A stretch of DNA of 31,156 nt from Candidatus Thorarchaeota archaeon. GTDB lineage: Archaea > Asgardarchaeota > Thorarchaeia > Thorarchaeales > Thorarchaeaceae. The DNA is taken from NCBI GenBank assembly GCA_016933575.1, contig JAFGAR010000125.1, positions 1 to 31,156 on the forward strand, written 5' to 3'. Positions 9,770 through 31,156 of this stretch are shown piece by piece. Each line of letters opens with the position of its first letter. Within the stretch, counting starts at the first letter, position 1. Made by a program: the position numbers and the translations under genes. Under the pieces are notes generated by a model that was given only the letters and a program-made list of their open reading frames with translations, searched no databases and was not told where the DNA came from.

Positions 9770-10078
9770 TATCTCTGCATCCATAAGGACCCATCCAAAA
9801 AAGAACCATATGCATACAGGCAAATTTGCACCTGGGATTAGTTTAGCTCTCGAAATATTGCATAAGTAGGAAATGCATAACGCTCCTGCTAACTGGTATG
9901 AAATATAAGACCATTTTAGATTAGTTTTAATTATCTACAAGCATAAGGTTCAAAAAGAGGAATGCCAGAACCTTTCCTTGTGGTGGGAAATGTTCGATGA
10001 TATGGCATATATCTATCGAATATCCTTATCTATTCGAATTTCAAAGTCATAAAATGGTTTGAAAATGGGGCTGCGATA

Positions 10079-13465: not shown

Positions 13466-13466
13466 T

Positions 13467-16400
13467 ATGGCTGAAGGCAATTATTTAGATGTAGGACGAG
13501 ATGTTATAGTCGAAAGTCTTCTGGATAAAACAAAAGGGGCATGTATTCTCATTACTGGTTTGCCGCATGATGACTGCGTAGAGCTCAGTAAGCAGGTAGA
13601 AAAGGCATATATTGCATCAAAAAGAGGTTTGAAACTCAAATGTTGTGTTGTATCTGATGAATCTTCAAATAAACAGAGCTCTCTTATTGTTACATCTACT
13701 AAGGTGATCGAACTAAGGAATCTAACAAAAGAACAAGCTCCACCAGATATTCTAACCGTTTTTAAACCGCAAGGGGCAATTAGCGATGCTGACGATTCAT
13801 TCGGACCTAATAACTTTCTTCAGTTATCCTCAGATGCGATTTGGACGAAGGGCTTAGATTCCACTATGAAAAAGGCACTCAAAGATTTGACACAGGTAGA
13901 GAAAAGAAATCTACGAACAGTTATGAAAAGCTCTCCCCTGATTGATTTATACTCTCAAGTTGGGATAGATTTCTTGCTGAAATTCATTCAAGAATCGGAC
14001 CATAACAATTTCATCAAGTCAAACTTGACTTGTATTGGCTTATTCAATGATAGCGAATTGAACTTCGAGGATGATCCAGACAAGTTTGCCGAGCGACTAA
14101 AAAGAAACAATGACTTTCTCGAGAAATTTCCATCCAAATCCACCAGCACAATCACAAAGATCTTGAGAGATAGTGTATCTGATACAGAATCAGTAGTATA
14201 TAAGGAGCTCAAGAAGTATTTCAAAGATAAGAATCGACACTCACTTCATGAGGATATTAGGAATAGTCCCCCAGGAGTTGACTTTGCCAAGATACTTCCA
14301 TTACTTGGAAAACCAGAGAAACTAGTTTTTAGTTGGTCTCCAAAACCTCAACGGATATCTAAATTATTCGATGTCGGTTGGAGACTACGCCCTAAGCAAC
14401 CCCACAAAAAAATCCGGATATCAATTGCTACTATTATAAATGAGGTTGAAGAGAATGAAGTCGATATAAAAACAGTAGATGCTGATGATAAGACTGCTAG
14501 AATAGATATCAGAAGCTACTTGGATAATCATGAATCTGATGTTTATCGCCTCTATCTTACACTATTGCACGAGAATGGTTCTCCTGAAACCAAACTTGAA
14601 GCTGATATTCGAGAAGATGGAAGCGCTGATGAAACAAACATGACTACTCACTCCTTACATTCAGCTCTTTTTGCTTTCCTAAAACACTGTAGAAAAACAA
14701 AGGGTCAAGCTATCGGTGATCTAAAGATAGAAGAGCTAAATGCTAATGGAGTAGATGTTCGGATAAGTTCAGCTAGTTTAGATCAGGACGAAACATACCA
14801 ACTGAATCTAGATGATGCTCTATGGAAATATGAACAGATAGTAGTTGGTGAACCTGACTATATAGGTCCATACGTTGCATCAAAACGCTGGATTCGCGAT
14901 CCTGCTGCGGCAAATAAACCCAAACGACTAATAACGCTTAATCATACCGAAATAACTCAAAACCTGCAAAGTATCAATGAAGATCTGGTTAGCAAGTATA
15001 GTGAGTTTGTTGAAGCTAGGAAAAAACTGTTTAAGGTGATAAAAGAGCGACCTATTCAAAGCATATCTCTTCTATCGAAAGAAAAGGATAGAGAACTGCT
15101 GATAGACGACTACACAACCAAGTACTCTGAGTTGCTATCAATCCTTTATGAGTCTCTAGTATCTATGAGTGGGAGTTCTATTCGTTCAATGAAAGATATT
15201 CTTCACTATATTCTATCTTGTGATATCCTATATATAAAAGAAAATTCGAATTTGGTATCTCTAATCCCTCCATCTAATCCAACGCGACTTTCATGGATTA
15301 AAGAAACTGAATTAGCAATTCTTGAGATTAAGGAAAGCATTGATTCTGGCGATATTAGCTCCAAGAAGAGCAAAACACTACCCAGTATTAACAATCTGTC
15401 ACTTGAAGGCATACTTGGGAGTATAATTCCTCCTGTGATTTGGACTCCCATGGAACAAGATCCAGATCATGTGTGTTTGTTTCGAGGTACAGTTAATGAC
15501 ATGTGGGCAATTCTTTCGAATCCTAAAGGCGATTCTCCTTTGCTTGCCCAGGAAATTATGGGATACCTGACTAAATCTTTGGATTATGATGTTGGTGCAA
15601 GCGATAGTAGAATATTACGGAAACGGATAAGAAAGTACCTTGATATCTATCCTCACATTGATACAATAGTAATCAATGCAATCAATCCCGGAAGTGGAAG
15701 CTCTGTATTGGATGCGATCCTTAATTTACCTGAGGAACAGCACTCAAGGAATTTCAGGATCAATCTTCTTTCTTTTGAAATGTCTAATAATATCGACACT
15801 CAAATCGGAGCCTCTTTTGACAACCTCATGAAGGATCCTTATCAAAATGAACGAACATCCAATCTCTTGGAAGAACACAGCAATCCATTGATACCAGGTC
15901 TTAGATACTCAAAGAAATGGATAAAAAGAGGTGAATTCACAGAGATCCCACTTGCACACATATCAATTCTCTTTGACTCCTTTTCAGAAAGAGTTGCAGT
16001 TGATACAATTGATGTAGGCGAACTAATAGCGTCCACAACGAGCGATGGTAGACTCGCTCAATTCGACAGCAAATATTCTGAAGGAACTCAAAGTGTCTGG
16101 ACACGAGCAGTCCACTTCAGTGATTCAGATAGTGAAAACAATTCCCTTCTCAATAAGTATTCAGAATGCATTGTAAAATGCTATAAAACAGCTAGTGATA
16201 CACAAGTAATTGGTACCAGAATATCTCTGCCCAAACAAGAGAAGGATTATCTCGAGAAGATATACAAAAGATCTGATTGGGTCATACTTGTTGACAGATA
16301 CATCGGTATTGAGATGCTAGATAGAAGTTTTGAAGAGTCCAAGCCTCGATATTTGATCGATTATGCTCCAGAATTCCAAGAGGAGTTAGGCTATCGAATA

Positions 16401-18410
16401 ATCACAAGCACTGAAAGTACCAAAGCCATTACAGATCAGGTTTCAGAAAGACTTTCTGACTATTCTTGGTACGCCGATTCACATCTTAACAAAGTGATAG
16501 ATGCGCTAAATTCCCTCTCAGGCATTCTATTAATGAAATACATACAGACAAGAAATCTTTCTTCAGAAACAACTACTCTTGCTTTGGCAATGCTGGCTTT
16601 GAAAGAATGGAACAACCAAGCTAAGGACACGAAGATTGTGATAGTGCCGATCGATGCCTATCAAGATCTTTGGTTTGAGGACTCTCCGAGTAAAAAGGCA
16701 GAAAGAGCTGACCTATTGGCTATTTGCATATCCAGATCTGGCGATGTCAGTTTCACAATGATCGAAAGTAAATGTGAGAATAGCAAATCACCTATCTTTC
16801 CACAAAGGCAGAGAGCAAGACGGCAACTTAGAACTGGGAAGAAATACTTAGAACGAAGGTTCAATCTAAAAAGCAATCGTTTTCTTCATGAGATGACACG
16901 TTCTGAATTATTTGGGATCATTCGATTCCACTTTGAGAAGCAGAAACGATTTGGACATGTTATGTCATTTGACTCAATTGATGAAATTGATCTTTTCAGA
17001 AAAATCCGCACAAATCTTCTTGAATCCTCTTTTGAGGTAGATTTTGATACAATCACACTATATTTCATTCCCAAAGCGAAACCAAGATCTTACTCACTAA
17101 CAGATCCTGATGTCGTCATAGCAGATGAATCTATGTGTACGGGGATAATTCAGGAGGATGTCAAAAAATCTACTGAATTGATCGACAATCTTGTAGGCTC
17201 AAGGTGTACTAGTAAATCAAAATCCCCTCTTGAGGAAAAAGACGAATCTACTTATGATGAATCAGATGGAAATAAAGATCTCTCTACCGATTCCGAGATG
17301 CAACATGAAGAAACACCAAAGCAATCCCAGAAGGAACACACCAAAAGGAAAAAGCCCACAGATGCATTCAATGATATACTTCTGGGATATCGGCGTGACA
17401 AGGAAATTACTTGGTCTCCCTATGATGGGGCTAGTCCACATCTAATAATCGTAGGAATGACGGGTGTTGGCAAGACACAAACTATGAAGGCAATAATTGA
17501 GGAATTGGATCTGAATGGTGTTCATTCTCTTATATTCGACTTTAATGATGACTATATCGATGATGAATTTGTAGAGCGAGCCGATTGTGTTGTGCTGAAT
17601 GCTGCAGATGGCTTAGATCTGAACCCTCTTGCTATTGGGGAGAATAAAATGAACACCTCATATGAAGTGGCTGGGATTATTGCTAGGGTATATGATTTAG
17701 GAAAACAGCAAGAACGTACACTGAGAAACGCAATCAAGGAAGCCTATGATACAACTGAAGAGCTCCCTTCATTTGGACGCATTGGAGATATTTTGCGAGA
17801 TTGGGCCGAGAATTCGGATTCGGCAAACAAGAGAAACACTGCTGATTCTCTGCTAGGAAGAATAGAATCATTGTTCGACTTCGGTATATTTGGTGGTACC
17901 GATGTGAATCTACTCCAACGAATATTCCATAAGACACATGTCATCCGCCTTCAAACACTGAAGGCCGATCCCAAAGATGCATTGAAGAATGCGGTTGTCG
18001 AACTAGTTTTGAATCACCTTCAACAAGAAATGTATGCAAGAGGGCACAGTGATATGGCTGTGTACTGCATGGTAGATGAAGCACATCGTTTGACCTATAA
18101 GAACTCCCCAATTCCCAAACTCGTTCGAGAAGCCCGCAAATACGGAGTTGGAATCATTCTCAGCTCACAGATGGTGAAGGATTTCGATGATGAAGTTCTC
18201 TCAAATATAGGTGCCACAATCGCCTTCAAAGTCAGTTCAGATGAAGCTACAAAAATCGCTAAATCTATGACGAGTTTAAGAGAGGATCAGCTCGATATAA
18301 TTACGAAACTGTTAACTCTTCCTAGATTTGAAGCGATAATACGATCTCAAAAATATCCTGATTATACCGAGGTGAAGATCCTTCCCTTTTTCCAAAGGCA
18401 AGATAATTAG
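13467..18410 (+). CDS. DptH/MAD8-like giant protein: PD-(D/E)xK nuclease motif plus C-terminal HerA/FtsK-type ATPase
   Basis: IELRN, PPSNPTRLSW, INAINPG, SDWVILVDR, LIDY, RADLL...IESK, Walker A HLIIVGMTGVGKT, Walker B MVDEAH, REARKYGVGIILSSQ. AGGTGA RBS before ATG 13467. Confidence 0.75.
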   Translation: MAEGNYLDVGRDVIVESLLDKTKGACILITGLPHDDCVELSKQVEKAYIASKRGLKLKCCVVSDESSNKQSSLIVTSTKVIELRNLTKEQAPPDILTVFKPQGAISDADDSFGPNNFLQLSSDAIWTKGLDSTMKKALKDLTQVEKRNLRTVMKSSPLIDLYSQVGIDFLLKFIQESDHNNFIKSNLTCIGLFNDSELNFEDDPDKFAERLKRNNDFLEKFPSKSTSTITKILRDSVSDTESVVYKELKKYFKDKNRHSLHEDIRNSPPGVDFAKILPLLGKPEKLVFSWSPKPQRISKLFDVGWRLRPKQPHKKIRISIATIINEVEENEVDIKTVDADDKTARIDIRSYLDNHESDVYRLYLTLLHENGSPETKLEADIREDGSADETNMTTHSLHSALFAFLKHCRKTKGQAIGDLKIEELNANGVDVRISSASLDQDETYQLNLDDALWKYEQIVVGEPDYIGPYVASKRWIRDPAAANKPKRLITLNHTEITQNLQSINEDLVSKYSEFVEARKKLFKVIKERPIQSISLLSKEKDRELLIDDYTTKYSELLSILYESLVSMSGSSIRSMKDILHYILSCDILYIKENSNLVSLIPPSNPTRLSWIKETELAILEIKESIDSGDISSKKSKTLPSINNLSLEGILGSIIPPVIWTPMEQDPDHVCLFRGTVNDMWAILSNPKGDSPLLAQEIMGYLTKSLDYDVGASDSRILRKRIRKYLDIYPHIDTIVINAINPGSGSSVLDAILNLPEEQHSRNFRINLLSFEMSNNIDTQIGASFDNLMKDPYQNERTSNLLEEHSNPLIPGLRYSKKWIKRGEFTEIPLAHISILFDSFSERVAVDTIDVGELIASTTSDGRLAQFDSKYSEGTQSVWTRAVHFSDSDSENNSLLNKYSECIVKCYKTASDTQVIGTRISLPKQEKDYLEKIYKRSDWVILVDRYIGIEMLDRSFEESKPRYLIDYAPEFQEELGYRIITSTESTKAITDQVSERLSDYSWYADSHLNKVIDALNSLSGILLMKYIQTRNLSSETTTLALAMLALKEWNNQAKDTKIVIVPIDAYQDLWFEDSPSKKAERADLLAICISRSGDVSFTMIESKCENSKSPIFPQRQRARRQLRTGKKYLERRFNLKSNRFLHEMTRSELFGIIRFHFEKQKRFGHVMSFDSIDEIDLFRKIRTNLLESSFEVDFDTITLYFIPKAKPRSYSLTDPDVVIADESMCTGIIQEDVKKSTELIDNLVGSRCTSKSKSPLEEKDESTYDESDGNKDLSTDSEMQHEETPKQSQKEHTKRKKPTDAFNDILLGYRRDKEITWSPYDGASPHLIIVGMTGVGKTQTMKAIIEELDLNGVHSLIFDFNDDYIDDEFVERADCVVLNAADGLDLNPLAIGENKMNTSYEVAGIIARVYDLGKQQERTLRNAIKEAYDTTEELPSFGRIGDILRDWAENSDSANKRNTADSLLGRIESLFDFGIFGGTDVNLLQRIFHKTHVIRLQTLKADPKDALKNAVVELVLNHLQQEMYARGHSDMAVYCMVDEAHRLTYKNSPIPKLVREARKYGVGIILSSQMVKDFDDEVLSNIGATIAFKVSSDEATKIAKSMTSLREDQLDIITKLLTLPRFEAIIRSQKYPDYTEVKILPFFQRQDN

Positions 18411-18460
18411 GGGATCACACTCCCTATCGATTCAGATAGGATGCACATTGAGCTGATAGC

Positions 18461-19366
18461 ATGAACGGAAAGAACAACTCCTTTCAAGAATCTCCACGGC
18501 CAATCATGAAATGGGCAGGGGGAAAACGTTCACTTCTTCCTACTCTATTGAATAACTTGCCAAGCACCTTCGGAGATTATTATGAACCGTTCTTTGGAGG
18601 TGGTGCTTTTTACTTTAAGTTATATAAGGAAGACTTCGTCCGGAAGGCAACTATTTCTGATTTGAACGCTGATTTGATTTGGTTGTATACCGTTATTAGA
18701 GATAAACTGAATGAATTCATAGATTCTTTTGATCTCACCTACTTCGTAAGTACAAAAGAACGATTTTACAAGATCCGTTCTGAATTCAATAGGGCAAAAG
18801 CCTCAAAGGAAAGGTCATTAATTCAAGCAATCAGATTGATGTATCTAAACAAGACTTGCTTTAATGGACTATATAGAGTAAATAGCAAGGGTGAATTCAA
18901 TGTTCCCTATGGCGGCTACAAAAACCCCTCCTTCTACGATGAGGATAATTTGAAAGAGGTAAGCAAAGCACTAGGTTTTGCTGAAATAAGATGTCAGGAT
19001 TTCGAAACTGTAGTTCAATCATCCTCCAAAGGGTCCTTTGTTTATTTTGATCCTCCCTATGCCCCACTAAGCGATACGGCGGATTTCACTTCCTATACTA
19101 AGGCCGGGTTCAGTTTTTCGGAGCAGGAGAGACTTGCGAAAGTCTTCGAATCTTTAGATAGAAAAGGTTGCTTTGTAATGGAGAGTAACTCAGCAACAAA
19201 AGCAATTCGTGATCTTTATTCTCACTTCAATATATTGGAGGTCAATGCAAGTAGGGCTATCAGTGCTGATGGATCCAAGAGGGGGAAAATCAGTGAACTC
19301 CTGATAACTAATTATGAAGCCACCGCCTTAACGCGCAAGCAGACTCTTCTTTCTGATTATGGGTAG
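18461..19366 (+). CDS. dam: Dam-family (D12, alpha class) DNA adenine methyltransferase
   Basis: MKWAGGK, YYEPFFGGGA, LNKTCFNGLYRVN..G.FNVPYG, FVYFDPPY, SNS, ELLITNY. Confidence 0.93.
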   Translation: MNGKNNSFQESPRPIMKWAGGKRSLLPTLLNNLPSTFGDYYEPFFGGGAFYFKLYKEDFVRKATISDLNADLIWLYTVIRDKLNEFIDSFDLTYFVSTKERFYKIRSEFNRAKASKERSLIQAIRLMYLNKTCFNGLYRVNSKGEFNVPYGGYKNPSFYDEDNLKEVSKALGFAEIRCQDFETVVQSSSKGSFVYFDPPYAPLSDTADFTSYTKAGFSFSEQERLAKVFESLDRKGCFVMESNSATKAIRDLYSHFNILEVNASRAISADGSKRGKISELLITNYEATALTRKQTLLSDYG

Positions 19367-19436
19367 CATTTGATATGGATTCCACTAGATTTTTCATCAA
19401 GTTATCCTCTAATGAATATTAGTTGGAGGTATAACT

Positions 19437-20012
19437 ATGGAGAATGATCGTAATGAAACTAGGATCGGAAAAATTAGTAATCTTCTCTCCCAATCTCTGA
19501 TAGAGTTCGAAGCACTCCCTAAGACTTTCAAAATACCTCAAGCAAATGATATAATAAAGGTTAGGGATTTTCCGGTAGCCGTTTCATTTGGATATGATGA
19601 TAGTAGGAAAATTGCAAGATATTTTGAATTCGATAAGAGGCAAAGCTCCTACTATCGAGATGCTGCACAGGGGCTAGGATTTGTTGAACTTGATCATCGT
19701 AATAAATACAAATTAACATCACTGGGAGAATGGTATTCTAAACTGAATACAAAAGAGAGAAACCATGTCCTTGTTAGAAGACTTGCTAAGCATCCTATCA
19801 TGGCTGAGATACTAGCGACACTGAATAAAGGCCAAGAGGTGACAATGTCTGATATTGAACAAATAATATCTAAGCATTCTTCATTGGGAGGGAGCACCAT
19901 TCCCAGAAGAGCATCAACTATTCTTAGTTGGTATCGATGGATCGAAATGGAAATCGGTTTGATTTCAGTTTGTAACGGAGTAATCTCGCCAAATGTTCAA
20001 ACTCGCCTTTGA
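19437..20012 (+). CDS. Stand-alone winged-helix protein resembling the C-terminal domain of Dam-associated restriction-like proteins (DUF7226-like, tentative)
   Basis: IPQAND...FEFDKRQSSYY.DAA..LG...YKLT.LG and ST..RRASTI.SW..W. GGAGGT RBS. Confidence 0.6.
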   Translation: MENDRNETRIGKISNLLSQSLIEFEALPKTFKIPQANDIIKVRDFPVAVSFGYDDSRKIARYFEFDKRQSSYYRDAAQGLGFVELDHRNKYKLTSLGEWYSKLNTKERNHVLVRRLAKHPIMAEILATLNKGQEVTMSDIEQIISKHSSLGGSTIPRRASTILSWYRWIEMEIGLISVCNGVISPNVQTRL

Positions 20013-20699
20013 TGGTGTTGATCTTCAAATTGGTGTAGCCACAATTGAATCTGGATGATCTCTAATCAGCTATTAATAACATGAACATTAAAACGAAGCT
20101 GACAATATGTCTTACTGAGGATACTGTGAAACTGCGAGTCTATTGGCCTCAATGGCAAATAGCATATCTAATAAGCAGTATGATACAAAGAGGAATTTTC
20201 GAATTCTCATGAAACAGGACAACCCCAAATACAACCCCAAACATCAGATCTGCTACGAGATCTTGATATCATGAGAAAGACATCAATTAGTAGTTTTAGA
20301 ATTGTATTTGATACGATTCATTCGATATATTTAGGTGAAGATCCCCTCTAATTCAGAGCTGAATTGACCATTTTGTCATATCAGAATACACGGCATAACG
20401 GATTTGCAAATCTCTGCTTTGTCATCTGTTCATCGCTATGCAGGAAATAAATGCAAGGTCTACATGGATCGTCAGGCTACTAGAAAATCTCTCATGGGAT
20501 CTATCAGGATTATCAGTGCCCTGGCGAAACCTATAGAACTACTTCTTCATGAAGCAAATAGCATGACAACATCTTCGCCTTATATTCGGAAACAAAGAAA
20601 AACCTAAAGAGCCGCACCACCTCATGAAAATGATGCAGCGCGTTCAATTGCTCTCGAAGACTCAATCTATGAGCAATATAATACTAGGAGCGATAAAGA

Positions 20700-22043
20700 A
20701 TGGATGAAAAGAAACCTTCTCTAAAAAAGGAGGTCGATGCATGGATTTCCAAGAATTCTGAGAATCTGCTTTTTCTCGAGTGCACTATTTTTTGGAGTAA
20801 ATGTATTGTACACTACCCAAATATTGTATCACCTGAAATAATTGGTGATGTCGTATCAAATCTATCCTCGCGTTTCCAAGAGAAATCGATCACTGAAACA
20901 ATGGGAGGTATATTGCACGAGCTACGGAAAATTGGGATAGAATCACCAGATCGACTCTTAGCAGAAGCAAGAAAAGCATTGAATAAATATGGATTGAAGC
21001 GTCTCATGAGTAATGTCCGTAGTAATTCTTCTGCTAATAGTGACTATAAGCGAGTGCTGCAGCTATTTGCAGAATTTATCGACAGAGAGGATCTATGGGG
21101 TACTGATCTAGATGTATTTAGTGTCACCAAATTGAATTCACTACTGAAAGTTTCGAACCTATTTGACTGTGAAGAATTACAGAAGAAGGGCGGGATTTAC
21201 AGGATCCATAGCTCTAAGGAGCAAAAAGCTGTATACATTGTTCCGCCGCATATTTCGTTGTATCTATATGAGATATTTGATATTGAAGAGGATATCATTT
21301 GCCCTCACTGTGATAAGGTCTTTGACACTGAAGAGGATCTTGAAGCACACGTATCGACATGCCCAAACTTACCAACTATTGTTTCACCAATACCTAAGTG
21401 TGAAAAATGCGGTTTGGAATTCAAATCTGAAACAGATCTTGAAATTCATCTGCATCAACATCATATGGAAATAGATGAATTACCACATCCCCCCTTTCCA
21501 AAATGTAGCGATATAGGATGTGGGGCTTCATTTTTAGTTAGGGCTAATTTCAGGAGACAAGACGCTCATAGATATCTTAAGGCAATTCTCGAAACAGCGA
21601 AAGAATACGTTAAAATTCAAGACAACTATTTACTCAGTGATTCTTTTCAATATTTACAATACATAGAGCCTAATGTATCAATATACCTACTTACTCACTT
21701 TAAGAAGGATAAGGATCTATTTCGGAACATGACGAAATTTTCTGCAATAATAGAAGAATTGGATCAACTGAAGAAAAAGGGGCATTCAGTTAAAGTAGCA
21801 CATATGAAATCCTCCGCTGTTCATGATAGATTGATCATCACTGAAAACTACTTATGGGGCCTATCAAATTCACTTCATGCTTTGGGTGGTAGTAAAATAT
21901 CTTCGGTCTTCTATATTCCGATAGATCAGAAGCAATACATTGAGCGAGCTTTCGATAACTATTTCAAAAATGCCAAGAAGCTCAGCTTGACTGATCTTGA
22001 GGACCTCGGCAATAATCTATCAGTTGGATGGTACAGGGAGTAG
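20700..22043 (+). CDS. Zinc-finger (C2HC + C2H2) protein with C-terminal PLD-like domain
   Basis: CPHCDKVFDTEEDLEAHVSTC and CEKCGLEFKSETDLEIHLHQHH; C-terminal VKIQDNYL...HDRLIITENYLWGLSNSL. GGAG RBS. Confidence 0.65.
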   Translation: MDEKKPSLKKEVDAWISKNSENLLFLECTIFWSKCIVHYPNIVSPEIIGDVVSNLSSRFQEKSITETMGGILHELRKIGIESPDRLLAEARKALNKYGLKRLMSNVRSNSSANSDYKRVLQLFAEFIDREDLWGTDLDVFSVTKLNSLLKVSNLFDCEELQKKGGIYRIHSSKEQKAVYIVPPHISLYLYEIFDIEEDIICPHCDKVFDTEEDLEAHVSTCPNLPTIVSPIPKCEKCGLEFKSETDLEIHLHQHHMEIDELPHPPFPKCSDIGCGASFLVRANFRRQDAHRYLKAILETAKEYVKIQDNYLLSDSFQYLQYIEPNVSIYLLTHFKKDKDLFRNMTKFSAIIEELDQLKKKGHSVKVAHMKSSAVHDRLIITENYLWGLSNSLHALGGSKISSVFYIPIDQKQYIERAFDNYFKNAKKLSLTDLEDLGNNLSVGWYRE

Positions 22044-22197: not shown

Positions 22198-24516
22198 CTA
22201 CGTTGCTTTGATTATTCCTTCATTCATCATTACTACATGATCAACATGTTCTTCCAATCCTGGAACATGGCTAACTAACACAATCTGATCGAACGACTCT
22301 CTAAGAGTAGTTCTTATTGAATTCATGATTCCCACTCTGCGTTCAGAATCACTGCTTCCCAGTGGCTCATCGAGAAATAGAAACTGCGGTCGAGTATTCT
22401 TTCTATGAGGGAGGAGGGCCAGTGCAAAGGCTATCCTCGTGGCCAAGAGGAATTGATCTTCAGTCCCTCCACTGAAGATATCCTTTGGGAGGAAATCATT
22501 AGCTTCCCTACAGAAGACAGCAACGTCATACGTATCTGATAGTCTTGCTGCAGCATATCTCCCGTTTGTTATGGATGGAAGTATCTTGGAGATATTCACC
22601 TCCACGCTGGGGCGAACTCGCTCTCTGAGGTTCTCAGCCGTCTTCGAAACAGCCTCAACAATGGTTTTGGAAAGATCCAGGTTATGTCGTGTCTTCTGGA
22701 CCTGCTCTTCTTGTTGGATTACACGGTCATCGATATCTGTGTGAGTATCCAAGAATTCCTGTTTCTCATCCAAAGATTTGGAGTAGTTGTCAATCCTCTC
22801 ATTGAGTGTGGATATTTTGCTGGTTAAATCTTTGACAATCTCTCTTTGATTCTCTAGATTCTCCTTAGAGAACACCAAAGTACCTAAGTCAGGAAGATCA
22901 AGATGATCAAGAGCTCTTTGCTTAGAGATAATCTCAGTTTCCTTTCCTTCTATATCCCCCTCGATAACGTCCCGTTTGGAAACATCTTTCTCAAGTGATG
23001 CTATCTGTTTTGTTGTTGTTGCTCTCTCTGTATTGAGCTCTTGAAATCGTTCTATAGAGTTTCGCGCACAATCGAGAAGATCTTGATGTGAGTCGATATC
23101 GAGGAGGTCAGAAATCTTTGAAACCAAATCCGTCAGGGCACTGTGAGATCTTTCAATGGTCTGCGACACATCTGTCCGTTTTGTGGACAGATCAGTGATT
23201 CTTTCTGCGTTCTCTTCGATCTTAGTCTGTGCTCTCTGATAGTTTGAATATCTCAAAGCTGTATCTGCTTTCTTCTGTTTGAAGCTAACTGTCTTGAGAT
23301 ACCATGCGATGATATATACCAGAAAGACAAGAGGTAGTACTACAAATAGCAGATTGATCAATAGAAGCATTGAAGATGCGCCTGCAAGTATAGCGGCACC
23401 TCTTACATATCGTGAGTCTGGTGGCGATTGATTGAGCAGTGCAATTTCCTCTTCAGAAGGGGCTATTGCATCAGCATCACATTGAAGTTGAACACCACGC
23501 TGATCAACCAATTCAAGCTCGTGATCTATGTCATCCAAACGTGCTCTTTCCACATCCAATGAATCAAGGATCTCTTCTACCCTGGAAACATCACTTTCAA
23601 CCTCATCGAGAATCTGGAGATCTACCATTCTCTCTCTGTGTTGTATTAGTTCAGCTTCTTTTCCAATGAGTTGATCTAGTGATTCATTGAGAAGTCCTTT
23701 CTGTTCATTCAGAGCAGATATCTTGGATTCTATCTTCTCTCTTTCTATGAGAATATCATCATACTGATATAGGAGTTTTAGATTTGCATTCTCAGAAGCT
23801 AGTTGAGCTTCGGTAGAATCCCGCTCCTTGGTTGACACTTCGATATTCTGATTAAGTTCTCTCACACTATTTTCAATCTCTCGAACCTGCACCTGCTCCT
23901 CGCGTAGGCTACCAAGTCGATTCTCTTGGATAGTCAGTTCTCCATGGCGTTTGGGTGTTCCTTCTAGGTCTCGAATTATCGCTTTATGTTCATTCAGTAC
24001 ATCGTTAAACTCATTCAAGTTCATGAAGACATTGATTATCTCTTTCCTATCACTAGCAGATTGCTTGATGAGGTGGTTGAGATCCTTCTGAGCAACAACG
24101 CAACTTGATACCAATTCTTGATATGATACATCTCCCATACGAGCAAGGATAGTGGTATTTACGCCTTTAATACTGGTTTCCAGTGATTTTTCCTTCCCAT
24201 TAGGATTGACTTCTACCAGACTTGCCGTATTGCCTTTGTTCCTGAATATCCTTCTATCCACTCTATACTTGATTCCTGCTATCTCAAAGATGAGCGACAC
24301 GAAGGCACTATCAGAGTTATGGTTAATCATCAGTGTGTGATTGGCACTACGATTCGGTTTCAAAGGTGCGCCATAAAGTGCATAGACGATTGCCTCCATG
24401 ATCGTTGATTTTCCACTCTCATTGGGTCCTCGGATGAGAGTAACTCCGTCCTTAAATTCGAGATCCTTGACATCAAGTTTCTTGAAGTTGATAGCAGTTA
24501 GTGAAACCAGTTTCAT
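22198..24516 (-). CDS. rad50: Rad50/SbcC-like SMC ATPase with central hydrophobic hairpin
   Basis: Walker A GPNESGKST, Q-loop VAQ, signature FSGGT, Walker B/D-loop FLDEPLGSSD, H-loop VSH, long coiled coils, no CxxC hook. Confidence 0.88.
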   Translation of the reverse strand: MKLVSLTAINFKKLDVKDLEFKDGVTLIRGPNESGKSTIMEAIVYALYGAPLKPNRSANHTLMINHNSDSAFVSLIFEIAGIKYRVDRRIFRNKGNTASLVEVNPNGKEKSLETSIKGVNTTILARMGDVSYQELVSSCVVAQKDLNHLIKQSASDRKEIINVFMNLNEFNDVLNEHKAIIRDLEGTPKRHGELTIQENRLGSLREEQVQVREIENSVRELNQNIEVSTKERDSTEAQLASENANLKLLYQYDDILIEREKIESKISALNEQKGLLNESLDQLIGKEAELIQHRERMVDLQILDEVESDVSRVEEILDSLDVERARLDDIDHELELVDQRGVQLQCDADAIAPSEEEIALLNQSPPDSRYVRGAAILAGASSMLLLINLLFVVLPLVFLVYIIAWYLKTVSFKQKKADTALRYSNYQRAQTKIEENAERITDLSTKRTDVSQTIERSHSALTDLVSKISDLLDIDSHQDLLDCARNSIERFQELNTERATTTKQIASLEKDVSKRDVIEGDIEGKETEIISKQRALDHLDLPDLGTLVFSKENLENQREIVKDLTSKISTLNERIDNYSKSLDEKQEFLDTHTDIDDRVIQQEEQVQKTRHNLDLSKTIVEAVSKTAENLRERVRPSVEVNISKILPSITNGRYAAARLSDTYDVAVFCREANDFLPKDIFSGGTEDQFLLATRIAFALALLPHRKNTRPQFLFLDEPLGSSDSERRVGIMNSIRTTLRESFDQIVLVSHVPGLEEHVDHVVMMNEGIIKAT

Positions 24517-25674
24517 CTACTCCCTCCCTCCTATTTGGCTCAAACAGAGAGTCTTAGCTTCCTGAACAAGACTCTTCTTTTCTTCTGACTCCGCAGCCTC
24601 TATCATAGAATCGAAGTATGCAGCCAGCTCCTCATAGGGGTCTAGGTACCCTACGATCTCAAATGCCTCAGGCTGCTTGATATGTAAATCACGTTCCTCG
24701 ATCAACGTCTTGAAGACTTTCTCATCCCCTTTTCTGATGAGGAACTGTCGGTCATACGCAGCCAATCCCTCCGGTGTTGCCACTCCAGTGACAAGTATCC
24801 GTAGTATTGTGGAAGGATCTAGGTCTTGCTTGAGCATCTCCTCAACTACCTGATTGATTTGGTCATCAGGTTTGACCTCAATGCTTTCAGTTCTCATAGG
24901 TCTGGCTTCCACGGGAATTTGTACAATGTCTATCTTCGATCCATCTACTTCGATGTAGACGAAGCTCTTTTCATCCTCCTCTTCGTTGAAAGTAACTCGC
25001 TCTGTGCTACCTGGAATAATGATATGTCTTGTTCCAACCCTTTTCTGCTGTGCAGCATGATAGTGACCTGCAATAGTTAGATCGAATCCTGATGGAATCC
25101 TCTGTACCTCTATCAAAGGTACTTCTCCCGCAAAGCCTTGAAATCCTGCTATCGGATAATGCAGCATCAAGATGTTGATATCTGCTGAAGGAGTAGGTAT
25201 CTCAATATTCAGTGGATCCTCATCACCTTGAAGCAGTGGATTATATCCGACTCCCACAATAGTGACTTCTTTCCCGTTGCATTTGAGATGGATTGCTTCA
25301 ATATCTGTCGGATTTTCGAAAAAATGGATTATTCCCGAGTTGCCATGAGAACGGAGGGGTGAAACTCCTGTACTAATACCCCTTGGTGTATCATGATTTC
25401 CTCCAATAACAAACGAGTTCACTCCGGCATCAGACAATCGTTTGAATTGGTGCATTACCCACGCATGAGTGCCATTGCTTGGTCGCATCCCATCGAAAAG
25501 ATCTCCTGCAACTAGAAAGATGTCTGCTTTCTTCTCAATAGCAAAATCCACCGTTTTCAGAAAGCCTTTGCGAAAATCAGCTCTTCTTGCATTAGCCCTT
25601 GATCCATATCTTGTGCATTTCGGATCAAGGTGCGCATCTGCCGTAGCCACGATTTTCACACTACTCTTACTCAT
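24517..25674 (-). CDS. mre11: Mre11/SbcD-like metallophosphoesterase nuclease
   Basis: TADAHL, AGDLFD, GGNHD, LMLH, AGHYH, PGSTER. ATG 25674 overlaps the end of herA. Confidence 0.92.
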   Translation of the reverse strand: MSKSSVKIVATADAHLDPKCTRYGSRANARRADFRKGFLKTVDFAIEKKADIFLVAGDLFDGMRPSNGTHAWVMHQFKRLSDAGVNSFVIGGNHDTPRGISTGVSPLRSHGNSGIIHFFENPTDIEAIHLKCNGKEVTIVGVGYNPLLQGDEDPLNIEIPTPSADINILMLHYPIAGFQGFAGEVPLIEVQRIPSGFDLTIAGHYHAAQQKRVGTRHIIIPGSTERVTFNEEEDEKSFVYIEVDGSKIDIVQIPVEARPMRTESIEVKPDDQINQVVEEMLKQDLDPSTILRILVTGVATPEGLAAYDRQFLIRKGDEKVFKTLIEERDLHIKQPEAFEIVGYLDPYEELAAYFDSMIEAAESEEKKSLVQEAKTLCLSQIGGRE

Positions 25675-27277
25675 CCTCGAATGCCCCTCCAAACTTCTCT
25701 TGGGATTCCTTATGTTTGGCTACTACCTTATCGATACCAACCTCCTTCCTAGCACTTCTTAGAGCCGATACGATATCGATATCTGCACCACCCTCTCTCG
25801 TTCTGCGTCTTCGAATCTTGACCATAACTGGAGCTTTTGCTATTGGACCAACGATGACTGCTTCTCCAGGATTAAGCCCCGGCAGGTCCGCAAGAAGATC
25901 TGAGCTCAATCTCTCTGAGCTCTCAGCTACTGAGTTCTGATCCTTTGGATTGGTCAGCTTCATTATTATCTGGCTGTTACATTGGCTGAGCGTATCAGCA
26001 TGTATCTTGGAAGGTCTCTGAGTTACTACTATGAGGAACACGCCAAACTTCCTTCCTTCTGCTGCGATGCGTTTCAGGATGGAACTACTCATAGTAGAGT
26101 TCTCTCTAGATACGAAATTGTGCGCCTCTTCAACAAGTACGAACACAGGATGCGGGAATCTTCCTGATGAGACCTCCTCATAGACCTCACGAAGGAGCTT
26201 TGCCACAATATAGTCCATACTGGAATGATCAAGCCCTGAGAGATCAAGGGTTGAGAGCTGCATCGGAGCAAGGAGTCTTGATAGTTGAGTTGATGAGCCT
26301 CCAAATACTCTCATTCTAACTAGGTCCCTTGCGAAGCGAACTGCTGAAGCATAGTCACTTCTCTCCCCCTGAGTGGCTGCTGTTTCCATATGACCCAATA
26401 GAGTATCCAAAAGATCATCTGGTGTGTACGCGGAGTTAGATTGTCTAAGCTCCCCAAGAACCTTGCTCATCGTTTCTCTGATTCTTCGGTAACTCGGTGC
26501 AACGCCTGCGATCTCAAACACCTCATCGTCAGAAAGATCTGAGAAAGCAATGGTATATTCCTCAATGGTGCCTATCTGACTCTCTTCATAGCGACCTGTA
26601 CTCGAAGGATTTCGAAATACCTTGCATCTGTCGCTAAGCTCGTGAATTGATGCGTCCTCATTTCTGCCCATCAATACATAGTCCGCGTGCGGATCGATGA
26701 TGAGAACAGTAGCTCCTTTCTCGAGAAGCTCCTCGAGAATGACTCCGGCTGCATAGCTCTTTCCTGCTCCAGTCTGGGCGATTATTGCCATATGTCTCCT
26801 CAGCCCAGTTACTGAGATGGACACATTTACAGATCTTCGCGTAATCAAAGATCCAACATCTAGAGCCTCATCGGCTTCAAACGAGTAGAACCTCTCCAAT
26901 AGGCTTTCTGAAGCAAGTCGCACTTCACTTCCCGGAGTGATCGATCGGCGTGGGAACAGCGCATCCCTCTCATCATCCTGCATATATCCAAGGATGCGAG
27001 CTTTTCCATAGACTCTGATATCATCTATATCTGCAGCCTTGATCCTTCGAATGGCTTCAAATCCTATGTATTGACTGAGGGCATCACTGGCCGAGAAAAT
27101 CGCTTCTACTTGCGCTAGGACATCGACCTCTGTCAAGACACCATCAATAAGCTCCATGGACTGAATACTAACATAGTCCAAGCGTGATGGGCACCTTTCA
27201 GTTGTACTGGAGAATATGAATGATGTGGAGCTTGCCTCTCCAACAATGATTCCGATTGCTTCATGCATAGTAGACAC
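25667..27277 (-). CDS. herA: HerA bipolar DNA helicase/translocase
   Basis: N-terminal HAS barrel (IGIIVGE), RHMAIIAQTGAGKS, IIDPHADY, VLVEEAHNF, AAEGRKFG, TQRPSK, LSQCNSQII. Confidence 0.93.
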   Translation of the reverse strand: MSTMHEAIGIIVGEASSTSFIFSSTTERCPSRLDYVSIQSMELIDGVLTEVDVLAQVEAIFSASDALSQYIGFEAIRRIKAADIDDIRVYGKARILGYMQDDERDALFPRRSITPGSEVRLASESLLERFYSFEADEALDVGSLITRRSVNVSISVTGLRRHMAIIAQTGAGKSYAAGVILEELLEKGATVLIIDPHADYVLMGRNEDASIHELSDRCKVFRNPSSTGRYEESQIGTIEEYTIAFSDLSDDEVFEIAGVAPSYRRIRETMSKVLGELRQSNSAYTPDDLLDTLLGHMETAATQGERSDYASAVRFARDLVRMRVFGGSSTQLSRLLAPMQLSTLDLSGLDHSSMDYIVAKLLREVYEEVSSGRFPHPVFVLVEEAHNFVSRENSTMSSSILKRIAAEGRKFGVFLIVVTQRPSKIHADTLSQCNSQIIMKLTNPKDQNSVAESSERLSSDLLADLPGLNPGEAVIVGPIAKAPVMVKIRRRRTREGGADIDIVSALRSARKEVGIDKVVAKHKESQEKFGGAFEDE

Positions 27278-28598
27278 GTCTGTACCCCCTATTGTATGCG
27301 AAATCCGAGTTGATCTCGTTCTCGATCACTCTCTTGTAGAGCCTGTCAACAGTTTCCCGCCTCAACCTGACCTTCTCATCGACACGTTTTAGCCATATAT
27401 TATAGTTCTCAGGTCCCCCGTACCCTCCTGTCAGGACCTCCATCACATCAGTTACATTGCACTCAAGGAACTTGGGTAGGGTTGGTTCCCATATATTCTC
27501 CTCTTGACCTACCATCCATGCTGGGATATCCACTCTAATTGGAGTATCGCTTGGATGTAGTCTGGCATGAAACGTCACGATTGCTGGCAGTTCCCGCAAT
27601 CTTGGCAGGACCCGTCTTGCAAGTTGCCAAATCTCATCAGGATCATCGGACGCCTCAATCACTGAGCCGTATCTTTTTGCGATATATCCGTCTGTATTCG
27701 AGAAGGCACTCATCAACGTCCTTCGCGGATGATCTGTCATGGTCATGAGAAACGGTCTGGTGTATCCTTTCCCACGCAGGAGTGCTTGCATAAGGACATG
27801 ATCTGAAATGGGATGCTGTGCGATCTCAACTAAACTTGCTATCGCATCCCAATCCTTGCCTTTCTTTTGCTTGAGTTCCCGAAGCAAACCCTTTGCAATT
27901 CCTGGCGGATAGTCTGGCGACATTACTGCGTGCTTGATTCTTTCGATCATATCCGGTGTTATTGTGGTCTGAGCGTGTCTTGTCACATCCTTTATCTTAT
28001 CTAGTATCAACGCGCGGAGAAAATGACTCACCTTGCTATCCTTACTTACCGCAATGATACCTATTCCTCTCTCCCTGCATCGCTCAAGCAGTATTAGCAA
28101 TTGATCATAATAGGACAACAGAAACAACTCATCCTGAGGTATTCCAAGCGCGATGGGAAGATGCTGCAGTCTCCCAAAGAGTGATCCATCAAGAAGTATG
28201 TATTTTGTATCTTCCCTATTTGCGCTTTCAAGTGCTACAGCATTCTCGCAGTACTCCATCCGAAGAGAAGTGTATCTGTCAACCTTGCCAGCTGATACAG
28301 TCATGGGGATTATTCCACTGTCAAGATGTCGAATATCTCCCCCATTTGAGAGAGCCAGCCCTCTTGTTATCCACCAAGTTGCCCCATTCCAAAGGGGTCT
28401 GGTCGCTATGCTGCCATCTGTACCAACAACTCCATCAGGAGGATCTAGCGATTCAACAGGAAGACCGAACCAATTCTGTGAGGCAAGAGGACCTAGCAAA
28501 TCCTTGTAGGCATCGTCTAGATTACCAGACAGACCCTCTTTCCATCGTTTGATATCTTCGCGGACCAGTACGACCATCTCCTCAAGATACTCAGGCAC
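27261..28598 (-). CDS. nurA: NurA 5'-3' nuclease
   Basis: VGTDGS, ILLDGSL, IAVSKDS, C-terminal Y..WL..VD..VRL. GGAGGT RBS 6 nt before GTG 28598; overlaps the herA start. Confidence 0.88.
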   Translation of the reverse strand: MPEYLEEMVVLVREDIKRWKEGLSGNLDDAYKDLLGPLASQNWFGLPVESLDPPDGVVGTDGSIATRPLWNGATWWITRGLALSNGGDIRHLDSGIIPMTVSAGKVDRYTSLRMEYCENAVALESANREDTKYILLDGSLFGRLQHLPIALGIPQDELFLLSYYDQLLILLERCRERGIGIIAVSKDSKVSHFLRALILDKIKDVTRHAQTTITPDMIERIKHAVMSPDYPPGIAKGLLRELKQKKGKDWDAIASLVEIAQHPISDHVLMQALLRGKGYTRPFLMTMTDHPRRTLMSAFSNTDGYIAKRYGSVIEASDDPDEIWQLARRVLPRLRELPAIVTFHARLHPSDTPIRVDIPAWMVGQEENIWEPTLPKFLECNVTDVMEVLTGGYGGPENYNIWLKRVDEKVRLRRETVDRLYKRVIENEINSDFAYNRGYRRVYYA

Positions 28599-28751
28599 TA
28601 GATAACCTCCTTTGATGCTCAAATACTATGAACGTATGAAGCTGTGCACTATGGTGCTATGCTTCTGCCTCCATTACCACATCCTATACTGTGCAGAACT
28701 TACCAATAATCTCATTGATGGAAACTTTCCACACTTTAGGAAAGTGTTTCA

Positions 28752-29318
28752 TCATCCCCTGCTAACTCTCCCAAATCCAAGTCTTCTATTGACCTCTGAC
28801 ATTTCGAATATACAGGTCATGGCATCATGCTCTCCCAATTCCGCGAAGCTCTTTCTTCGAGCCTCATCATCATATGATTTTAGGAGGTAGTAATTGATAG
28901 CCACAGGAATTCCATAGCTATACGAAAGAATCAATGATGCTACGACTGCGCTACTTGCCATGATCTTACGTCCTGCTGTAGCATCAACAATCACTCTTGA
29001 GTCATCGGTTGTTCGACTCAATACGCCCTCAATGATAGTTCTTATGGCGCCTTCGAGGTCTGCTTCAGGTATCCAGATGTAATCCGATGCTTGCGGTCTT
29101 GGTAGACTTGGTGCTGATGTTGAGATCGATAAAGCATAATTGATCGACTCAGTGGTTTTCATGCTTTGCGGGGAGGGCTCTCCGCTTTCAGTGAGTGAAA
29201 CTATGAATGAGAGGTTCCTGATGTGCACATCAGAAAAGTTTGAGATGAATGAGCAGAGAGAATTCACGCAAGCTATGGGGGAAACTCCAACAACTGCATA
29301 ATAGTCTACATATTCCAT
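28752..29318 (-). CDS. Stand-alone CARF-domain protein (Csx14/ring-nuclease-like)
   Basis: N-terminal YYAVVGVSP and CARF signature VIVDATAGRKIMA; no effector domain; next to cas2. Confidence 0.75.
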   Translation of the reverse strand: MEYVDYYAVVGVSPIACVNSLCSFISNFSDVHIRNLSFIVSLTESGEPSPQSMKTTESINYALSISTSAPSLPRPQASDYIWIPEADLEGAIRTIIEGVLSRTTDDSRVIVDATAGRKIMASSAVVASLILSYSYGIPVAINYYLLKSYDDEARRKSFAELGEHDAMTCIFEMSEVNRRLGFGRVSRG

Positions 29319-29484
29319 TGAAAAACCTCGAAGAACCTTTGGATAGTATGCACATATGATATAATGAAGAAACTATCCTGCTGGGTTACAACAATATCAA
29401 ACCCCGAAATCCCCCTTTTGCTCTTCGAAGCGGAATCAGGTAATCGTACTCCTGTGGTAATCGCTCACCAGTCTTTTTCGGGTT

Positions 29485-29787
29485 CTATGCAAACAATAGA
29501 GGTTGATTAACAAGGAATATCTCTCTTTTCTCACCCAATTCCTGAATCTTTTCTCGACAGGTCCTGCAAATAGGTATGATAACAATAGAATCGGTTTCAG
29601 ATCTTTTGATGAGATGTTCTCTTAGAACTGCTTCCAATCTCACCAAATCCTTATCTGTCAAAGAACCTGAGAACGCACTGAACTGGATTCGTTCCAAACC
29701 AAAATCCTTCAGGCTATCGCTTACTTTGTATCTAAGAGAATTCTCTGTAATATCGTAAATTACAATGTATTGCAATGATATCACCAT
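29485..29787 (-). CDS. cas2: CRISPR-associated endoribonuclease Cas2
   Basis: YIVIYDI, R.KV...LKDFGLERIQFSAF.G, DSIVIIPIC..C; overlaps the cas1 stop. Confidence 0.95.
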   Translation of the reverse strand: MVISLQYIVIYDITENSLRYKVSDSLKDFGLERIQFSAFSGSLTDKDLVRLEAVLREHLIKRSETDSIVIIPICRTCREKIQELGEKREIFLVNQPLLFA

Positions 29788-30803
29788 TTAAAGACAAAGG
29801 GTATATAGAAGGCTCTCCCTGTCCGAAGCGTTGAAACAACAGTTTCCACTTGCTTTCTTATGACAGCTTTTACAGTTATCATCGCACTATTATCATAAAG
29901 TCTTTTTTCTAGACGCGCAAGGATGGATTGGGCTAATTCTCTGCGGACTGGTGCGCCCAAATCATTCCCTCCCTCAATGTTCGATCCTCCCGTCAAGAGT
30001 AGTAATTTACATACTTGTGCATCCACAACATAAGCTCGAAACTCCTCCATGATATCCAGAACTAACGATGGTTTCCCTGAACGATCTGAATGCAAGAACC
30101 CTGCAAAGGGATCCAATCCACAACCCACTATTGCAGATAGGACTTCGCTCCTTAGGATTGCATAGCCATAGTTGAGAAGCCGGTTTACATAATCGCCTGC
30201 ATTTCTAGTGATGCGATGAGTAAACTCCTCTTCTCTTGAAGTCAATTTGGCAATAGCGCTCCAATATAACGAAGCAGCATTTCCTTCAAGACCAAAAAGT
30301 GCCTCTTTACCATTGGGATCATGTCCAAGGGAATCTATTTCCAGGATGATCTTTTGAATTTGCTTGCACGTATCTCCTATGTGGTTTCCCAGCTTTGGGT
30401 TTCGTTTCTTGATGTTACGTGCCCTACGGAGTAAGTGCCCCCTTTGATTCTTTATCTTTCCAACTATAAACATCGAGGCCAAGAAGAATCCTAATTCCGT
30501 ATTGGATTCCACATATTGAGCTTTCCGCAACGAAACCATCCCGTGATCGAGTGGATTGGCAAGGTATGCTGTTGTTTGATCTGAGTAGCTATTCACATGG
30601 ACCGGTATCATGTAGTCCATCGCAAGGGTGAGCGCATCACATGTTACACTAGCTCCCTTTGTAGGCAAGATGATCCTATTCACTTTGCATGCAGCTATCT
30701 CAATTTCCGGTCTATCTGGGTTACAGATTATGAAACGCTTTCCTCTTTTCCTTAACGATGTTCCGTACTCATTTATGATAATAGTAGTTGTCCCGTCCCT
30801 CAT
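29781..30803 (-). CDS. cas1: CRISPR-associated integrase Cas1
   Basis: YGTSL.K, GKIKNQ, LFGLEGNAA..YW, N.LLNYGY..L, GLDPFAGFLH, SLVLDIMEEFR..VVD. ATG 30803 lies 30 nt downstream of a TATA box. Confidence 0.96.
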   Translation of the reverse strand: MRDGTTTIIINEYGTSLRKRGKRFIICNPDRPEIEIAACKVNRIILPTKGASVTCDALTLAMDYMIPVHVNSYSDQTTAYLANPLDHGMVSLRKAQYVESNTELGFFLASMFIVGKIKNQRGHLLRRARNIKKRNPKLGNHIGDTCKQIQKIILEIDSLGHDPNGKEALFGLEGNAASLYWSAIAKLTSREEEFTHRITRNAGDYVNRLLNYGYAILRSEVLSAIVGCGLDPFAGFLHSDRSGKPSLVLDIMEEFRAYVVDAQVCKLLLLTGGSNIEGGNDLGAPVRRELAQSILARLEKRLYDNSAMITVKAVIRKQVETVVSTLRTGRAFYIPFVFKW

Positions 30804-30832
30804 GATTTTTCCCAGAAGCACTTCGCGCTATA

Positions 30833-30840
30833 CTATATAA
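30833..30840 (-). promoter_or_regulatory. TATA box of cas1 operon
   Basis: TTATATAG on the minus strand, 30 nt before ATG 30803; consistent with a leaderless archaeal transcript. Confidence 0.5.
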
Positions 30841-30849
30841 GGAACAGCA

Positions 30850-31119
30850 AAGAAAGTTTCCAAGCGCAAATTGCTGCAGAATATGGTTCTTTTTCAGAGC
30901 TCTATTTTGCAAAGATATGAATCCCATGAATCCATAACTAAATTGGTATTTTCATCCCCTTGTGAGTGGTCATTTCTAGCAGGTTCCAGCGAATTAACGA
31001 TTCTGCGATCTTGCGCTACCCTTTATAGAGAAAGCTAGAAAATTGGGCGTAGCGCACAGTTCTTCAAAATGGAGGGCTATACGTTCTCGTATGGACAAGA
31101 TTGATATATCAGAGGGGCT
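30850..31119 (+). promoter_or_regulatory. CRISPR leader
   Basis: Non-coding stretch between cas1 and the repeat, with inverted repeat TGCGCTAC (31012-31019) / GTAGCGCA (31049-31056) and GGGGCT directly before the repeat. Confidence 0.65.
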
Positions 31120-31156
31120 ATTGCAAAAGTAGATCCCGTGTTTAGGGAATTGCAAC
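31120..31156 (+). CRISPR. First 37-nt CRISPR repeat (array truncated by window end)
   Basis: ATTGCAAAAGTAGATCCCGTGTTTAGGGAATTGCAAC: 37 nt, internal stem TCCC/GGGA, 3' handle ATTGCAAC, near cas1. Only one copy is visible. Confidence 0.7.

Follow-up and report, generated by a model that had tools for sequence, protein, structure and literature searches.

Mre11-Rad50 engages double-strand DNA ends, and HerA feeds DNA through NurA. The genes for these four proteins form an operon in archaea such as Sulfolobus, Pyrococcus and Thermococcus, and Asgard NurA proteins are uncharacterised (PMC13748450). CRISPR-linked nurA-herA paralogues also exist, in Thermoproteales, where nurA-csm6-herA clusters constitute a conserved, always array-linked clade without mre11 or rad50 (PMC3396285). 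In Bacillus subtilis, SbcE (YhaN) is an SbcC/Rad50-like ATPase that lacks the CxxC motif, carries a hydrophobic central domain with a conserved proline, and is partnered with the Mre11/SbcD-like SbcF (YhaO); it has roles in the repair of breaks and in transformation, and in competent cells it accumulates at the pole where DNA is taken up (PMC2811018). Here we describe a nurA-herA-mre11-rad50 cassette that lies next to CRISPR adaptation genes in a 31,156-nucleotide stretch of DNA (the window), which is the entire contig C105 of a 3.47-Mb Candidatus Thorarchaeota metagenome-assembled genome (MAG; G000 in the set compared). The assembly has no 16S gene, and the affiliation follows the nearest named proteins, which come from Ca. 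Thorarchaeota. As in the known archaeal operons, all four genes are present and linked, with their motifs intact. Unlike those operons, this one encodes a Rad50 with a hydrophobic apex hairpin and no CxxC motif, and it is a rare extra copy beside a hook-bearing set. We consider it probable that this is an accessory NurA-HerA-Mre11-Rad50 repair cassette of a hookless Rad50 class, situated directly downstream of an unrelated cas1-cas2-CARF module in a defence island.

The cassette is part of a row of seven uninterrupted open reading frames (ORFs), all on the minus strand, that runs from cas1 to rad50 and spans 22198-30803. Its members are nurA (27261-28598, 445 amino acids (aa), PF09376 at E 9e-18, frame open from 28622), herA (25667-27277, 536 aa, DUF87 at 1e-35), mre11 (24517-25692, 391 aa, Mre11_Sulfo at 7e-29) and a gene for a Rad50-like ATPase (22198-24516, 772 aa, Rad50 at 2e-30), all on the minus strand. 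nurA and herA overlap by 17 nucleotides (nt), herA and mre11 by 26 nt, and mre11 and rad50 abut. Catalytic motifs are intact in all four proteins: both catalytic Asp motifs in NurA, whose D69 and D145 (453-aa numbering) are kept in 98-100% of 83 homologues; Walker A/B, arginine finger and TQRP motifs in HerA; all five phosphoesterase motifs in Mre11; and Walker A, Q-loop, FSGG signature, Walker B and H-loop in Rad50.

A second complete nurA-herA-mre11-rad50 operon, whose Rad50 has a CPTC zinc hook, is present on contig C131 of the host genome, and a further nurA-herA pair on contig C64. The NurA-like gene on C131 was missed by the Pfam NurA profile and by the family hidden Markov model, and was found by profile-profile comparison only (94.8%, E 5e-8). 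Of 36 family genomes, 35 have C131 HerA, with identities of 58-86% and conserved neighbours, and all 24 genus genomes have the C131 NurA-like gene; the window-type cassette occurs in 2 of 86 family genomes. In trees of HerA (a quick search), Mre11 and Rad50 (both FastTree), the window proteins fall in an eight-member clade with support of 99-100, far from the C131 clade and nested in a larger group drawn from other families of Asgard archaea and from further archaea. Judged by distribution and phylogeny, the window cassette is an extra, non-vertical set and the C131 operon is the vertical one.

These results bear on an earlier note on this DNA, which had described seven co-directional genes, the resection four overlapping or abutting, with no cas4 between the CRISPR leader and rad50, and had proposed an accessory paralogue set. 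ORF calls, profiles and coordinates bear out the gene arrangement, and cas4 was found neither in that interval nor elsewhere in the window or the genome, which is 85.5% complete. The paralogue proposal holds as well, given the full operon on C131 and the contrast in distribution, and the three phylogenies do not place the window proteins with vertical orthologues. Among the findings that the note had listed as refuting it, a lack of cas linkage in relatives is indeed what we observe, but these are not the only copies in the genome and they do not branch with vertical orthologues.

A third, sporadic type of nurA-herA-mre11-rad50 operon was also seen in the family, with a 935-aa Rad50 that carries a CPKC hook (L098, L099, L107 and L108; G028 C29, G035 C4, G033 C9 and G034 C68, respectively). 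Genome G028 holds three complete resection operons plus a nurA-herA pair.

The window-type operon occurs in 19 of 19 genomes of another Asgard family (f12), in housekeeping surroundings, and in G047 and G057, both of this family, no other Rad50 was found. It is also present among housekeeping genes in further archaea, and NurA and HerA of the window have ordinary relatives in Archaeoglobi. In family f12, this operon type is the ordinary repair set.

Upstream of the cassette in the window are cas1 (29781-30803, minus strand, 340 aa, PF01867 at E 1e-59; the frame is open from 30821 and a 340-aa product is on record), cas2 (29485-29787, minus strand, 100 aa, PF09827 at E 4e-15) and a gene for a stand-alone CARF protein (28752-29318, minus strand, 188 aa, recognised by weak CARF profiles at E ~3e-4 and by the fold of its model). 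cas1 and cas2 overlap by 7 nt. The gaps in the row, of 166 nt between cas2 and the CARF gene and 153 nt between the CARF gene and nurA (28599-28751), are the junctions that matter for reading the row as a single unit, and neither is closed by overlap or abutment.

This arrangement was seen in one genome only. No cas1-cas2-CARF module precedes any of eight orthologous cassettes, whose upstream neighbours, visible in seven, are uvrB (in uvrBAAC), a helix-turn-helix (HTH) gene in a restriction-modification island with IS605, Dnd genes, an integrase, Endonuc_Holl and unrelated ORFs. The closest relative of the window module, a cas1-cas2-CARF module in genome G072 with 80% DNA identity over 1279 nt, also has the 166-nt gap; in the window, no cas4 remnant was seen in it. 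Homology to this module ends ~15 nt past the CARF stop codon (near 28735 in the window) and a different ORF follows (215 nt available); window-type Rad50 was not found in G072. With window cas1 as the query, cas1 was found in 0 of 27 same-genus genomes. Genome G099 was considered as a control for Cas4-less uptake and judged unsuitable, as its cas1-cas2 has cas4. Because none of the eight cassettes is cas-linked, the G072 module stands without a cassette, and the operon type is ordinary in f12, the comparisons identify the join as lineage-specific and probably recent. The same three observations speak against the view in the earlier note that a dedicated resection machine is wired into the CRISPR locus.

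The adjacency might in principle reflect assembly or binning that joined two islands, as the MAG is in 215 contigs with 6.9% contamination. We regard such an artefact as very improbable, since there is no repeat at the junction, GC content shifts smoothly, the closest relatives of both sides are in Thorarchaeota, and the CARF reading frame and the nurA ribosome-binding site are intact.

Relatives of the window cassette appear to have a promoter of their own. A palindrome, CTCGG-N5-CCGAG, followed by an AT-rich stretch, is centred 76-106 nt before nurA in seven of the eight orthologous cassettes, one of which, held out, scores 18.7 with a weight matrix built from nine sites. With its arms conserved and its centre variable, the palindrome also precedes uvrB in 13 of 14 genomes of the genus, and a weaker form is found 95-99 nt upstream of the vertical nurA at 23 of 25 genus loci; these counts come from same-genus genomes and so lack independence, and in G028 the site may act on both uvrB and nurA. 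None of nine genomes outside the family has it before uvrB. In the host genome, 11 of 2838 upstream regions score at least 15, versus ~3 expected by shuffling. We read CTCGG-N5-CCGAG as a candidate repair-gene or DNA-damage operator of this Thorarchaeota family; a literature search for an Asgard DNA-damage operator found no description of one.

Palindrome sites are located at L033:15409, L039:9909, L042:9916, L044:1095, L046:2600, L047:224, L189 ~1960, G000 C138:87585 and in L123-L136; within the family, uvrB has the motif in common with resection operons of three kinds. In addition, a strong copy lies directly upstream of a 647-aa gene that overlaps a HerA-like gene in the host genome (L116:612-4410; C156:82111-85909), possibly another damage-regulated nuclease-translocase pair.

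Several observations weigh against a repair cassette that is independent of the cas genes. All seven genes are co-directional with every gap below 170 nt, and the host genome is without cas4. No terminator-like match was found in the cas2-CARF or CARF-nurA gap, by a bacterial-type scan whose chance-level performance gives it little weight. Three of the orthologous contigs offer less than 3 kb of upstream DNA, and in G028 a CARF-HTH gene, cas6 and an array lie on the far side of rad50, at a distance of 6-8 kb. The window copy lacks the palindrome (score -2.6 versus 17-24), which is absent upstream of nurA, of the CARF gene and of cas1, and the host radA also lacks it, so the motif does not define a complete damage regulon. 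The G028 CRISPR genes are convergent with the cassette, on the opposite strand, and lie behind three other defence genes that include Mokosh-like and PLD genes; the cas1 genes of G028 are on other contigs. A Dnd-linked copy, L041, is likewise without the palindrome, and its loss is therefore not CRISPR-specific. Nonetheless, loss in the window copy makes read-through from a cas promoter possible, and it is the one observation that keeps an adaptation role alive.

If the cassette does serve adaptation, it might have been captured recently by the cas1-cas2-CARF transcript, with loss of its own damage promoter, and supply prespacers to a Cas4-less type III system. Co-directional genes, gaps of only 166 and 153 nt, the missing cas4, and a palindrome that is absent here and present in most orthologues all fit such a capture. 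There are also precedents: Mre11-Rad50 stimulates the acquisition of spacers in Haloferax volcanii (bioRxiv 10.64898/2026.05.08.723854), Csa3a of Sulfolobus activates herA and nurA together with adaptation genes (PMC5587795), and Thermoproteales have their array-linked paralogues (PMC3396285). Yet the link exists in one genome only and is missing from all eight orthologous cassettes and the nearest cas module, the Dnd-linked L041 is also without the palindrome, a complete resection set is already present on C131, and homologues of the CARF gene never adjoin nurA. We consider capture improbable. An elaborated version, in which a membrane-anchored Rad50 cassette exchanged its damage operator for the cas1 promoter and draws prespacers from ends at the membrane entry site of invader DNA, is to our minds just as doubtful. 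Because host resection enzymes aid archaeal spacer uptake, incidental help from the cassette seems plausible under any reading and would not require a dedicated module.

Comparison with the Thermoproteales cluster also separates the window from known CRISPR-linked sets. The two are alike in that a nurA-herA paralogue adjoins a CARF gene and an array, as among type III NurA-HerA pairs. However, the window clade is CRISPR-adjacent in this order in one of nine cases and includes mre11-rad50, and window HerA matches other HerA profiles at E 1e-50, versus 6e-18 for the profile of HerA proteins that co-evolved with type III systems.

The cas genes themselves do belong to a type III locus. At its end, the window has a perfect CRISPR repeat of 37 nt (31120-31156, plus strand). 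These nucleotides are the first repeat of an array, and are identical to the repeat of the array that opens contig C76. Between this repeat and the start of cas1 is a divergent leader region (30804-31119, plus strand). The array resumes at the start of C76, where it has ~34 repeats, and a degenerate trailer repeat marks its far end on that contig. Next on C76 come genes for a Card1/Can2-like CARF nuclease and a type III-D-like module (Cas10 with a GGDD motif, a Csm2-like subunit and several RAMPs), then cas6 and a Csa3-like gene. Since the array is shared with the type III module, cas1-cas2-CARF is the adaptation end of that locus, and the GGDD motif of Cas10 predicts that the system can make cyclic oligoadenylate (cOA). 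The spacers have no meaningful match to the genome itself. A second short array, with a different repeat, lies between cas6 and the Csa3-like gene (L004:13263-13647).

The CARF gene has no Pfam match. The model of its product (pLDDT 88.7) matches CARF domains at Z scores of 12-13, with several tied, and its best Foldseek match is the ring nuclease Sso2081 (E 1e-6). The protein is a single domain, without an effector or HTH domain, and at 188 aa is within the limit of <250 aa applied to stand-alone CARF ring nucleases (PMC12409355). It resembles Crn1 enzymes (Sso2081 and Sis0455) in being stand-alone, in its class of ~180-190 aa, and in its type III setting, where a cA4-type, Card1/Can2-like effector is also encoded. 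It differs in that identity is 18-19% and other CARF domains tie in Z score, and the match to the Sis ring nuclease entry is weak (E 1.2). Also, CARF homologues elsewhere precede a PIN-like gene or adjoin E1/JAB genes, whereas the window gene has no PIN-like neighbour. The structural model makes the protein a candidate Crn1-like ring nuclease, one that belongs to the type III system and probably acts as a cOA-degrading off-switch. The idea that cOA controls the four resection enzymes through this protein finds no support: the protein is stand-alone, and its homologues pair with a PIN-like protein and in no case flank nurA.

A paralogue of this CARF gene is part of a recurrent block with a 160-aa gene, a ThiF/E1 gene and a JAB gene (L005:4503-7506 on C76 of the host genome, L081 and L095). 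The block usually includes a PIN-like gene and adjoins type III or cas1-cas2 genes in Thorarchaeota.

Rad50 is the unusual member of the cassette. It has no CxxC zinc hook, and a hydrophobic stretch (aa ~369-407, encoded at 23296-23412 on the minus strand; 19-residue hydropathy 2.95) occupies the exact midpoint of the protein, the position of the hook. The head of the model folds like solved Rad50s, and helices at 369-385 and 393-472 make a helix-loop-helix at the coiled-coil apex, with pLDDT ~70-85 there. All 55 close homologues (E <1e-56) have the midpoint hydrophobic hairpin and none has a central CxxC, while hook-bearing Rad50s in the same list of homologues lack the hairpin. Alignments and model together indicate that a hydrophobic apex hairpin replaces the zinc hook. 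Hydropathy suggests that the apex most likely inserts into a membrane, the alternative being tip-to-tip dimerisation of the arms; a two-copy model of the apex (aa 300-480) scored 0.05 and was not used as evidence.

A literature search for transmembrane or hookless archaeal Rad50 returned nothing relevant, and SbcE of B. subtilis is the only described member that was found. The window pair shares with SbcE-SbcF the lack of CxxC, the hydrophobic centre, the adjacent SbcD-like nuclease and a match to the AAA_27 profile. It is distinguished by canonical head motifs, a short hairpin of 35-40 residues and coupling to NurA-HerA. Matches between the window Rad50 and one protein named YhaN are weak (E 2.5e-6), and the likeness to SbcE is one of described design. 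The host genome encodes a second hookless pair at a contig edge (L122:168-3163, C208), in which an Mre11/SbcD-like protein accompanies a 651-aa SMC-like ATPase that lacks CxxC and has a hydrophobic hairpin; nurA-herA is absent there.

On its other side, the cassette borders a defence island (8360-22043, plus strand, GC ~38%) that converges on rad50 and includes an N6/N4 methyltransferase, DndF/SspF-like, MAD7/SspG-like and DndH/MAD8-like proteins, a Dam-type methyltransferase, DUF7226 and a PLD-like zinc-finger protein. The four genes thus sit between two defence systems, the type III CRISPR end and a DndFGH/SspFGH/MADS-like block. This location raises the prospect of an anti-invader system, comparable to Lamassu or Wadjet in combining an SMC-type sensor with a nuclease, in which membrane-tethered Mre11-Rad50 catches linear ends of viruses or plasmids and HerA-NurA destroys them independently of CRISPR. 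At least four of the nine clade loci are in defence islands (the window and islands with restriction-modification, Dnd, or Mokosh-like and CRISPR genes), one follows an integrase, and the distribution in the family is rare and patchy. The apex hairpin could localise Rad50 to the membrane, and SbcE gathers at the pole where DNA is taken up (PMC2811018). Such islands, however, collect mobile DNA of any kind, most Thorarchaeota-type copies have the palindrome shared with uvrB, and the same operon is the sole and universal Rad50 set of f12, with housekeeping surroundings elsewhere. An anti-invader function is rather unlikely in our estimation, and we continue to favour an accessory repair cassette.

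Within the island, the DndF/SspF-like, MAD7/SspG-like and DndH/MAD8-like genes lie between those for the N6/N4 and Dam-type methyltransferases (8360-19366), and no phosphorothioation genes are present in the window. This segment is possibly a methylation-licensed DndFGH/MADS-like restriction module. The gene that is convergent with rad50 (20700-22043) encodes 447 aa, with a pair of C2H2-like zinc fingers and, at the C terminus, a PLD-like (VPA1262/PDC-S05) domain. A 488-aa HTH-containing protein (5296-6762) belongs to a family that is often multicopy and near defence or CRISPR loci. A specific tie between the cassette and this HTH gene of the island, which also occurs in L039, was considered and dropped, as the gene is present in 52 of 86 family genomes.

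As an accessory repair cassette, the four proteins may work much as in other archaea. Their intact motifs and the archaeal mechanism suggest that Mre11-Rad50 would bind and nick or trim a double-strand end using ATP, and that the HerA ring would pump duplex into a NurA dimer, which would resect or degrade the DNA. The tips of the Rad50 arms would be greasy hairpins, placed in a membrane in the most likely case or else dimerised. In relatives, where the cassette has its own promoter with the uvrB-shared palindrome, it would normally be a unit of the DNA-repair regulon. Help to Cas1-Cas2, if there is any, would be of the generic kind given by host resection enzymes and not a dedicated partnership.

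That the locus fails as a CRISPR module removes a false lead; were capture nevertheless real, it would illustrate in nature how prespacers reach Cas4-less archaeal systems. The palindrome offers a specific candidate operator for the DNA-damage response of an Asgard lineage. In one Asgard family the hookless four-gene machine is the ordinary repair set, while in Thorarchaeota it is a mobile extra. A host genome that carries both Rad50 classes would permit a side-by-side test of the role of the zinc hook, which is supposedly essential.

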